NCBI RefSeq assembly: GCF_003263515.1
Contig: NZ_JYDE01000019.1
Span: 36,384-60,383, forward strand
Origin: Rahnella inusitata
GTDB taxonomy: Bacteria > Pseudomonadota > Gammaproteobacteria > Enterobacterales > Enterobacteriaceae
Length of the DNA: 24,000 nucleotides
Reading direction: 5' to 3'
Both the position numbers and the translations under genes were made by a program. The notes under the pieces were generated by a model. It was not told the origin of the DNA, did not search any database, and saw only the letters and a list, made by a program, of their open reading frames with translations. Below, in pieces: positions 15,708 through 17,956 of this stretch. Position 1 is the first letter of the stretch, and every line of letters begins with the position of its first letter.

Positions 15708-16961
15708 TCAGGATTTGCGCCCTAATCCCCAGCACACCAGCCCTGCGACCACCAGCGACGGAAGGGTCGCGCCGATGTCCGGCAGCAGGTGAGCCATCAG
15801 ATGATAGACCGCGATACCGATAATCCATGCTGCCAGTGAATGCACATTCAGGTCTTTATGGGTCTGAGCGTGCAGGACAAAATGATGGGTGAGCACGACG
15901 CCGAACAGGGGCGCAAACACTGAGCCAATCAGCAGAAGGAAGTTTTCATACTGCGTGAGCGGCACACCCCATGCGATAAGCGTACACAGCAAGCCAATGC
16001 CCAGAGTGAGTTTTCCGATGCTGATGGGCAACGATGTCCCCGCCGAGACCGCCGCCGAATGGATATCCGCGAACGCGTTTTCGTGTTCATCCACCAGAAT
16101 CAGTAACAATGGAATGCCCAGCGCGATGCCGGAAAGTGCCAGCAGCAGGGCGTTAGCGTCAGTCGATGTGCTGACGAACGCCAGCGTGTAGCCCACGCCG
16201 AGTGACATCATCCATACGCTGCCGAGAAAATATCCGCACGCCGTTCCCCAGAAGTTCTGTCTGGCGGTTTTGCCGAACCGGGTGTAATCCGACACCAGCG
16301 GCAGCCACGAAAAGGCCATCGAGACCACGATGTCACAGGCCTGCGCGAACGGCATCGAGCCGTCTCCCGCTTTGTGCCAGAGCGTGGATAAATCCGCATG
16401 CAGGAACAGGTAACCGGTCAGCCACGCGCAACTTGCCAGAAGCAACCAGATCCCCCAGCGGCGCAACACCACGCGGATAAATGCCAGAGGCCCGCTGGCC
16501 GCCAGCAGCGTGGCGATTGCGCCGAAGATAAACGTCCAGAGTGTCGGATTGGCCCACAAGCCGCCATCGCCCCACGCCCGTTTTGCCAGAAGTGTGGCCG
16601 CATCGCGCATGACGACGATTTCGAACGCTCCCCAGCCGACCAGTTGGATCAGATTAAACACCACCGGCAACGCCACGCCGCGTTTACCGAGGCTCAGCCT
16701 CAGCGATGCCATCGACGACATTCCCGTCTGTCCGCCGATCACCCCGACCAGCGCCAGCAGTGCAACGCCCACTGCGGAACCCAACACAACAGCCGCCAGC
16801 GATCCCGCGAGCCCCAGACCCGGAGCCAGAATCGCCCCCGCCTGCAATACCATCAGGCCCATGCCGAGCGAGAACCAAAGCGAGAATAAATCAGCCCAAC
16901 CTAATGTCCGTGATTTTTCCGGAACAGAGGTTTTCGGTGAGTAAATACTATTATCTTTCAT
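15708..16961 (-). CDS. NCS1-family purine/cytosine-type permease (CodB/CytX-like)
   Basis: 417 aa with about 12 TM segments. Length and layout resemble CodB (419 aa), and the SDYTRFGKTARQ motif parallels CodB ADFVRFGRNAK. Substrate not assignable. Confidence 0.7.
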   Translation of the reverse strand: MKDNSIYSPKTSVPEKSRTLGWADLFSLWFSLGMGLMVLQAGAILAPGLGLAGSLAAVVLGSAVGVALLALVGVIGGQTGMSSMASLRLSLGKRGVALPVVFNLIQLVGWGAFEIVVMRDAATLLAKRAWGDGGLWANPTLWTFIFGAIATLLAASGPLAFIRVVLRRWGIWLLLASCAWLTGYLFLHADLSTLWHKAGDGSMPFAQACDIVVSMAFSWLPLVSDYTRFGKTARQNFWGTACGYFLGSVWMMSLGVGYTLAFVSTSTDANALLLALSGIALGIPLLLILVDEHENAFADIHSAAVSAGTSLPISIGKLTLGIGLLCTLIAWGVPLTQYENFLLLIGSVFAPLFGVVLTHHFVLHAQTHKDLNVHSLAAWIIGIAVYHLMAHLLPDIGATLPSLVVAGLVCWGLGRKS

Positions 16962-17114
16962 GAGGTTAATTTCGTGGTTACAGCGAAGGTCTGTTATAGC
17001 ACAAAGCCAAAGGATTCTGATGACGGGTATGGGGGAAGCGCACTTTTGGGTTTCAGTTGCTGAATTTCCGGCACAAAAAACCTTTTCTCACTTCTTAAAA
17101 TTTCAATCTCTTCC

Positions 17115-17786
17115 TTACTTCGAATGAATCACAATCACGCCTAATTTCTCCAGCAAATGACTTTGCTGCCAGTCATCGATTTTCACGCCGTCGAGATCGA
17201 CCTTGCGCAGGTTCAGTTCGCCAAGATCGGAATTCGTCAGGTCACAATGGGTGATGTTCACATTGTTCCAGTCAAACTCGGTGAATTCGCCGCCGGAAAG
17301 ATCGGAGCCGCTGAGGTTCGCGCCTTGCACATTCGCACCGGTCCAGCGGTTTTCCCACAGTTCACATTTCTCCAGAATGACTTTGCTGAAGTTCGTGTAG
17401 CTGAAGTTATTTTTGGTCATGAACGCGCTGCAAAACCAGGTGCGCGAGGTGATCATATTCATAAAGCTGGCACCGCTGAAATCTGCGCCGGTGGCTTTGC
17501 ATTCGCGGATTTCCAGACCCAGCGCCTGAATATTTTTGAAGTCGGCCATGGTTAAATCGCAGTTTTTGAAACTGGCGTCTTTCAGCTGCGCATGCTGAAA
17601 AGAGCAACCTGCCTGCGTTTCATCATCGTAAAAAATACAGTTCACGAAGGCGACTTCAGACAGATCACTGCTGTCGAAACGGCAGCGCAGGAACCGGCAA
17701 TCATGAAATATTTCGCCCGTCAGCTGCTTCTGGCTAAACCGCTGGTCGCTGAAAGTCTGGTCTTTGATCATCTCGTTCTCTGTCAT
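17115..17786 (-). CDS. qnr: Qnr-family pentapeptide-repeat protein (DNA gyrase/topoisomerase IV protection, quinolone resistance determinant)
   Basis: 223 aa. Colinear with remembered QnrB/QnrD through GADFSGASFMNMITSRTWFCSAFMTKNNFSYTNFSKVILEKCELWENRW, GSDLSGGEF, THCDLTNSDLGEL and LEKLGVIV. Pentapeptide A(D/N)LXX periodicity runs throughout. Confidence 0.9.
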   Translation of the reverse strand: MTENEMIKDQTFSDQRFSQKQLTGEIFHDCRFLRCRFDSSDLSEVAFVNCIFYDDETQAGCSFQHAQLKDASFKNCDLTMADFKNIQALGLEIRECKATGADFSGASFMNMITSRTWFCSAFMTKNNFSYTNFSKVILEKCELWENRWTGANVQGANLSGSDLSGGEFTEFDWNNVNITHCDLTNSDLGELNLRKVDLDGVKIDDWQQSHLLEKLGVIVIHSK

Positions 17787-17811
17787 TTTTCCCGCCGCGA
17801 AGGGGCTTATC

Positions 17812-17827
17812 CTGACAGAAAATACAG
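17812..17827 (-). promoter_or_regulatory. LexA (SOS) box upstream of qnr
   Basis: The minus strand reads CTGTATTTTCTGTCAG, i.e. CTGT-N8-TCAG against the consensus CTGT-N8-ACAG, with CTG-N10-CAG intact. It ends 25 nt upstream of the qnr ATG. Confidence 0.6.
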
Positions 17828-17956
17828 ATCGAAAATATGGAACCTGCCTCGTAATAACACGATTTACTTAAGTATTCGTTTTGCCGATCGGCTGGCAGGC
17901 GTCTATTCTCAAAGGCTTAACGGAGTCCATCTTTCAATCAGCTAAGGAAGACTGAA

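Follow-up and report, generated by a model that had tools for sequence, protein, structure and literature searches.

Chromosomal qnr genes are monitored as a source of transferable quinolone resistance, and some of them, being under SOS control, can be induced by the drugs they counter. The stretch of Rahnella inusitata DNA analyzed here (24,000 nt, referred to as the window) contains a gene of this type. It raises the questions whether the encoded protein is a genuine Qnr protein, whether the gene is native to Rahnella, a bacterium of soil and water, or shows signs of mobilization, and whether it is regulated by LexA, as proposed in a preliminary description of this DNA. Based on the results presented below, Rahnella qnr is an ordinary member of its family without any sign of mobilization, and its claimed inducibility is unsupported.

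In the ORF listing of the window, a 223-aa open frame is located on the minus strand at 17786-17115. The frame therefore exists as described before, whereas its start has to be revised. The upstream in-frame ATG (17784-17786, minus strand), at which the 223-aa version begins, is present in a few species only, is absent from most of the 19 Rahnella orthologues compared and is probably not the start codon; the 223-aa version was used by a single JGI gene call. The ATG at 17771, opening the sequence MIKDQTF or MFTNQ, is common to all 19 orthologues, and the exact-match protein in a large protein database comprises 218 aa. Because of the start shared by the orthologues and the length of the database protein, the qnr coding sequence was taken as 17115-17771 on the minus strand (218 aa plus stop), which places the claimed LexA site 40 nt from the likely start.

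The deduced protein was assigned to the Qnr family by the NCBIfam model NF033086 (317.7 bits, cut-off 240), with profile positions 2-210 of 211 being covered. Alignment to QnrB1 (PDB 2XTW) yielded 61-62% identity over 206 residues without any gap (E 1e-88). The sequence blocks quoted in the preliminary description are included in this alignment, and the colinearity noted there was confirmed for QnrB1. The repeats are interrupted by two surface loops: loop A reads YDDETQAG in the Rahnella protein vs. YDRESQKG in QnrB1, and loop B reads SFMNMITSRTWF vs. SFMNMITTRTWF. For QnrB1, deletion of the residues TTR in loop B was reported to abolish quinolone protection (PMC7897471). An AlphaFold model of the Rahnella protein, calculated from alignment A1, reached a pLDDT of 91.3 and features a helix at residues 200-209. 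In Foldseek comparisons, this model matched QnrB1 (2XTW) with TM values of 0.93-0.97 and an rmsd of 1.1 A, and AhQnr (3PSS) with a TM value of 0.94, whereas the next pentapeptide-repeat proteins after Qnr (MfpA, AlbG) reached values of only approximately 0.5-0.6.

Scores obtained with the subfamily profiles remained below the respective cut-offs for QnrB (311 bits vs. 460), QnrE (307.5 vs. 480), QnrD (275.7 vs. 425) and SmQnr (275.5 vs. 460); therefore, the Rahnella protein represents an unnamed lineage. The novelty consists in this unnamed lineage of a well-known family; in relatives, the protein already carries the automatic annotation 'Qnr family pentapeptide repeat protein'. The fact that the curated cut-off of every named subfamily was missed, and that a functional assay for the Rahnella lineage was not found in the literature searched, might be taken to mean that the gene encodes a generic pentapeptide-repeat protein without a topoisomerase role, resembling Qnr at the level of the repeats only. 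This interpretation is very improbable, since the curated family model is passed, the identity to QnrB1 extends gaplessly over the full length including the functional loop, the predicted structure superposes closely on 2XTW, and non-Qnr pentapeptide-repeat proteins match the Rahnella protein at E values of 1e-13 or worse. As the identity to Qnr families does not fall below 40%, the limit under which the preliminary description would have considered the protein a generic repeat protein, the assignment stands: the Rahnella ORF encodes a genuine Qnr-family pentapeptide-repeat protein. QnrB1 binds GyrB and promotes ATP-dependent drug release (PMC7897471). By analogy, we infer that the Rahnella Qnr would protect gyrase from quinolones.

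Genes encoding Qnr were found in 18 out of 18 genomes of the same genus that were searched, showing identities of 86-98%; the nearest named genome is that of Rahnella inusitata (98%). The divergent arrangement of dcp and qnr is kept throughout Rahnella and Ewingella, and cytX is often located downstream. In the Qnr tree, Rahnella and Ewingella form one clade (support 100/99) with the Qnr proteins of Rouxiella/Sodalis as sister group. The dN/dS ratio of qnr ranges from 0.04 to 0.08 (window vs. eight relatives), and its G+C content from 0.48 to 0.51 vs. 0.53 for the genome. Transposase or integrase genes or insertion sequences were not seen adjoining qnr, the neighbours being cytX, dcp and ygjK-type genes; the earlier observation that no mobile element flanks the gene thus proved correct. 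Based on its occurrence in all genomes searched, the conserved dcp/qnr synteny and the clade support, qnr is a native, core and vertically inherited chromosomal gene of Rahnella, which is in line with the preliminary description. In a search of 72,556 plasmids (4,224 records with a match), the best match was QnrB with approximately 62% identity, and none exceeded 80%. Consequently, there is no evidence of mobilization of the Rahnella qnr lineage, and its designation as a potential progenitor-type allele was not supported.

The divergently oriented neighbour dcp, encoding a peptidyl-dipeptidase, is located at 17957-20110 on the plus strand (NF007624, 1096.6 bits, cut-off 944). Downstream of qnr, a cytX-type gene for a putative hydroxymethylpyrimidine transporter was identified at 15708-16961 on the minus strand (TIGR02358, 380.2 bits, cut-off 309.85). 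For approximately half of the Rahnella genomes (L002, L003, L007, L008, L012, L014-L017), no cytX gene was detected in the 1.5 kb following qnr. As cytX abuts qnr in the window, the downstream junction is variable. An Rfam search of positions 16800-18100 returned nothing at E <=1, and hence no riboswitch or leader, including the region ahead of cytX.

The preliminary description had further proposed that qnr is controlled by the SOS response via a LexA box. The SOS system of the genome is of the standard E. coli type: lexA is located at G000:C25:95549-96145, and palindromes close to TACTGTATATATATACAGTA were found directly upstream of recA, dinB, sulA, umuD, uvrA, uvrB, uvrD, yebG and ftsK as well as, in two copies each, upstream of recN and dinI. 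The SOS genes beside these palindromes were identified by means of NCBIfam and Pfam. The 13 verified SOS operators were used to construct a symmetrized LexA matrix (PWM1), with which they themselves score 18.6-26.3 bits, while the two boxes preceding lexA score 16.4 and 17.9 bits. Since PWM1 was trained on strong sites, it is conservative toward weak ones; a looser matrix (PWM2), derived from the 50 best genome sites, shifts the qnr site by approximately 1 bit. In addition, following Lewis et al., a heterology index was calculated from 15 verified sites of the genome, resulting in values of 3.0-8.8 for verified operators; the threshold for this index from the E. coli literature was not applied as a hard cut-off. 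Further LexA boxes of 20-24 bits were observed at G000:C24:15018, G000:C39:102394, G000:C31:50706 and G000:C36:45173. The genes downstream of these boxes encode two C-5 cytosine DNA methylases, a phage-type integrase and a DUF2461 protein, and possibly represent lineage-specific SOS regulon members or prophage switches.

The claimed LexA box CTGTATTTTCTGTCAG (17812-17827, minus strand) was confirmed as a reading of the sequence, including its end 25 nt before the ATG at 17786 (40 nt before the ATG at 17771). It represents a weak LexA-like match and is probably not an operator. The left half, CTGTAT, is perfect, and the spacing CTG-N10-CAG is correct. On the other strand, the right half reads CTGACAGA vs. 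the consensus CTGTATAT; it mismatches positions 4-8 of the half-site consensus and keeps the CTG alone. The single half-site mismatch counted previously holds against CTGT-N8-ACAG only, whereas the 20-nt LexA consensus is matched at 11 of 20 positions. Moreover, the site scored 10.0 bits with PWM1, a value reached or exceeded at approximately 310 positions of the genome, and 11.1 bits with PWM2 (genome rank 242), compared to 16.4-26.3 bits for the verified operators of the genome. Its heterology index of 14.3 likewise lies outside the range of the verified operators. Calculated for the 16-nt core, the experimentally validated LexA box of qnrD, CTGTATAAATAACCAG (PMC8789287), reached 19.7 bits vs. 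12.6 bits for the claimed qnr site. When the 185-nt dcp-qnr intergenic region was dinucleotide-shuffled, 0.9% of the shuffles contained a site of at least 10 bits, and such sites occurred within 120 nt upstream of approximately 2% of gene calls (crude ORF calls). The site is therefore somewhat unusual by chance, yet far below functional strength.

In orthologous promoters, where the operator of a LexA regulon member would be expected to be conserved, the left half-site was found in 3 of 19 Rahnella species, one of them showing a weaker variant. Among the 19 Rahnella orthologues, CTG-N10-CAG upstream of qnr is restricted to the window and its two closest relatives, and screening of up to 220 nt upstream of these orthologues revealed the motif elsewhere in none beyond those three. 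The left half was found in the window, in G004 and in R. inusitata SAF3349, while the other 16 species do not possess a CTG at this position. Strain SAF3349 reads CTGTGT, corresponding to 6.9 bits and a heterology index of 16.1. Only three differences between the window and SAF3349 are present within the 90 nt upstream of the start (dS of qnr 0.21), one of which alters the conserved A of CTGTAT. The occurrence of CTGTGT among just three upstream substitutions gives no sign of selection keeping the site.

Alignment of the dcp-qnr intergenic regions revealed two invariant blocks, TTC[CA]ATATTTTC and TTCTGTCAGGATA, which are approximately 9 nt apart and enclose the most variable stretch of an otherwise conserved region. 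The block TTCTGTCAGGATA (17808-17820, minus strand) is identical in 15 out of 15 aligned Rahnella intergenic regions. The other block, reading TTCCATATTTTC in the window, is located upstream of the 9-nt spacer at 17831-17842 on the minus strand. CTGTAT falls into the variable spacer, while the CAG belongs to the invariant block TTCTGTCAGGATA; hence, the match is composed of a lineage-specific spacer beside a separately conserved element. Block TTCTGTCAGGATA may represent a regulator site or, as part of the qnr promoter, an extended -10 element (TGT-CAGGAT), in which case TGTCAGGAT may be the -10. The block TTC[CA]ATATTTTC possibly acts as an activator site or UP-like element. For the divergent gene, a likely dcp promoter, TTGCCG-N17-TATTCT, was located at 17881-17909 (plus strand); both hexamers are invariant in Rahnella, while the candidate matches the consensus at 8 of 12 positions and stays under the threshold of the scan. 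Accordingly, the consensus scan of positions 16950-18000 for sigma-70 promoters returned none at threshold, and both the qnr and the dcp promoter were assigned exclusively by conservation.

Further observations concern the same intergenic region. The sequence AAATCGTGTTATTACGAGG, located just upstream of the dcp promoter candidate, is also conserved. A PhoB box composed of CTGTATT-TT-CTGTCAG was considered and rejected, as the repeat period is 9 nt instead of 11 nt and most species do not possess the first repeat. The 15-nt sequence TTCTGTCAGGATAAG (window positions 17806-17820, minus strand) recurs exactly once in the genome, at G000:C26:61381 on the plus strand. This copy is intergenic, following a 111-aa ORF and preceding a small Gly/His-rich ORF by approximately 190 nt. 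Approximately 0.01 such 15-nt repeats are expected by chance, and the recurrence may reflect a shared regulatory site or a coincidence.

In order to place the Rahnella locus among its relatives, 80 qnr loci from named genomes were scanned with the same matrix from -200 nt to +40 nt of the match start. Among the Enterobacterales loci outside Rahnella and Ewingella, 46 of 60 possess a box of at least 13 bits next to the ATG and 45 a box of at least 16 bits, the box-bearing genera including Citrobacter, Enterobacter, Lelliottia, Buttiauxella, Serratia, Pantoea, Erwinia and Chania. Its usual form is TACTGTATAAA(A/T)AAACAGGT. The qnrB box TACTGTATAAAAAAACAGGT scored 21.5 bits. A box was also detected in all five Ewingella-type loci (13.7-17.1 bits), compared to none of at least 13 bits in the 15 Rahnella-type loci, where the best value was 6.9 bits. 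The distance between the CAG of the box and the ATG is 8 nt in qnrB1, as read from a plasmid record, and 9 nt in Ewingella, where the box overlaps the ribosome-binding region; the claimed Rahnella site does not share this position. Concerning individual records, 'Hafnia psychrotolerans' CGMCC 1.12806 (L062) and 'Ewingella sp.' S1.OA.A_B6 (L066) possess no LexA box. Their Qnr proteins are placed in a starred 10-row clade together with those of Rahnella rivi, R. inusitata and the window, and the genus labels of both records look doubtful. In the case of 'Ewingella americana' E4 (L054), Qnr groups with Ewingella and the box is present.

At the position next to the ATG that is homologous to the box of the relatives, Rahnella possesses the sequence GCGGGAAAAATGACAG (17780-17795, minus strand; heterology index 24.5). 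It keeps ACAG, 8 nt before the ATG, and the A-run, while the left CTGT is missing. In the MAFFT alignment, ACAG or GCAGG of Rahnella is aligned with the right half-site of Ewingella, and the left half-site falls into an 11-nt gap. As judged from this short alignment, GCGGGAAAAATGACAG is likely a decayed ancestral operator, the right half of which would have been kept because it doubles as the Shine-Dalgarno region, although ACAG may persist just as a ribosome-binding site. Furthermore, the Rouxiella/Sodalis sister clade does not possess the box either, so that a gain in Ewingella instead of a loss in Rahnella is possible.

Taken together, the claimed box is most likely not a working operator, and qnr is consequently most likely not SOS-regulated: the site is weak, confined to three close species and off the canonical position, which itself has no left half-site. 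The favoured explanation, considered probable, is that of an intrinsic Qnr protein expressed from a Rahnella-specific promoter region after loss of LexA control. According to this scenario, the 218-aa protein is a right-handed pentapeptide-repeat beta-helix with Qnr loops and a C-terminal dimerization helix and, as suggested by its homology to QnrB1, would bind DNA gyrase, mainly GyrB, freeing quinolone-type poisons from the cleavage complex. The predicted outcome is low-level intrinsic quinolone protection. The ancestral gene almost certainly possessed the canonical LexA operator at a distance of 8-9 nt from the ATG, which is still present in Citrobacter qnrB, Enterobacter qnrE, Serratia Smaqnr and Ewingella qnr, and the left half-site of this operator would have been lost in Rahnella. 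Expression would now proceed via the genus-specific upstream region with the blocks TTC[CA]ATATTTTC and TTCTGTCAGGATA, and the apparent 'LexA box' would be a lineage-specific CTGTAT in the variable spacer, separated by 10 nt from the CAG in the invariant block.

Two other interpretations of the upstream region were weighed against this scenario. The site could be a young, weak and functional LexA operator of the R. inusitata subclade which partly restores SOS control, CTGTAT having arisen in the promoter spacer beside the existing CAG after loss of the canonical box. Such an operator would be well placed, as it overlaps the invariant block with its possible -10 element and thus sits on the putative promoter, where LexA operators usually act; furthermore, genes of the wider family are as a rule under SOS control. 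The perfect left half-site, the correct spacing and the chance probability of only approximately 0.01-0.02 also agree with it, whereas the right half CTGACAGA, mismatching at positions 4-8, and the sibling sequence CTGTGT, which alters one of the most conserved operator positions, do not. With respect to its strength, the site is at least 6 bits below every verified operator of the genome and has a high heterology index; however, its score overlaps those of the weakest E. coli operators, for which the same matrix gives 10-14.5 bits (ybfE 10.0, ydjM2 14.0, recN3 14.5), so that weak LexA binding is possible. Overall, a functional young operator is considered unlikely. Also quite unlikely is a rewiring of qnr in which the operator was destroyed (approximately 11 nt missing vs. 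Ewingella), control was taken over by TTC[CA]ATATTTTC-N9-TTCTGTCAGGATA together with a putative non-SOS regulator, and the spacer is drifting toward a LexA half-site in the R. inusitata subclade; the 15-nt core of this element would be the sequence that recurs at G000:C26:61381.

Decay of the canonical box was not restricted to Rahnella. Partly decayed boxes, e.g., ATATGTATGGATAAACAGGT and CACTGTTTAAAAAAAAAGGA, were observed in Serratia rubidaea, Acerihabitans arboris, Yersinia pekkanenii, Y. aleksiciae and Serratia sp. AKBS12 (loci L081, L087, L075, L082 and L080), so that qnr seems to have escaped SOS control repeatedly. Moreover, the plasmid-borne qnrB1 box of K. pneumoniae (NZ_OW970415.1, L031:1457-1471) reads CTGTATAAAAAACAG, featuring six A residues and the spacing CTG-N9-CAG. 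The A-run comprises seven residues in chromosomal Citrobacter copies and eight in one Atlantibacter hermannii copy. Changes in A-run length could misphase the half-sites and de-repress qnr.

A study addressing the Rahnella qnr gene was not found in the literature searched for qnr of Rahnella, Ewingella or Rouxiella; in one paper on quinolones in Rahnella, resistance was put down to mutations in gyrA and parC. Among Enterobacterales, a LexA box next to the qnr start codon is widespread and has decayed repeatedly, namely in Rahnella, Rouxiella, Yersinia, Serratia rubidaea and Acerihabitans. For this reason, SOS inducibility should be scored for each lineage and not be taken for granted because a gene belongs to the family or a bare CTG-N10-CAG match is present.

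Among known systems, the chromosomal Qnr of Ewingella americana shares the dcp/qnr locus, the clade and 82-91% identity with Rahnella Qnr. The Ewingella gene carries its box with the CAG 9 nt before the ATG, whereas Rahnella retains the right half only. QnrB1, which is plasmid-borne and of Citrobacter origin, belongs to the same length class and has the same fold and C-terminal helix, and its loop B is kept in Rahnella except for one T to S change. However, Rahnella Qnr is not a QnrB allele, as it remains below the QnrB cut-off (311 vs. 460), it is chromosomal with no plasmid occurrence seen, and it is not preceded by a strong LexA box like the one that qnrB carries 8 nt ahead of its ATG.

SmaQnr of Serratia marcescens and QnrD are Qnr proteins from the family or order of Rahnella and share 55-60% identity with its Qnr. 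They provide the precedent for SOS control (Briales 2012, in the form in which it is cited in PMC8789287). The boxes of S. marcescens qnr and qnrD reach 19.8 and 19.7 bits, respectively, vs. 10-12.6 bits for the Rahnella site. Identities are lower for QnrA and QnrS (44-47%), while the chromosomal Qnr of Rouxiella shows 60-64%. Like Rahnella qnr, the genes for QnrA, QnrS and the Rouxiella/Sodalis Qnr possess no credible upstream LexA operator; in contrast to them, Rahnella qnr is preceded by conserved upstream blocks of its own.
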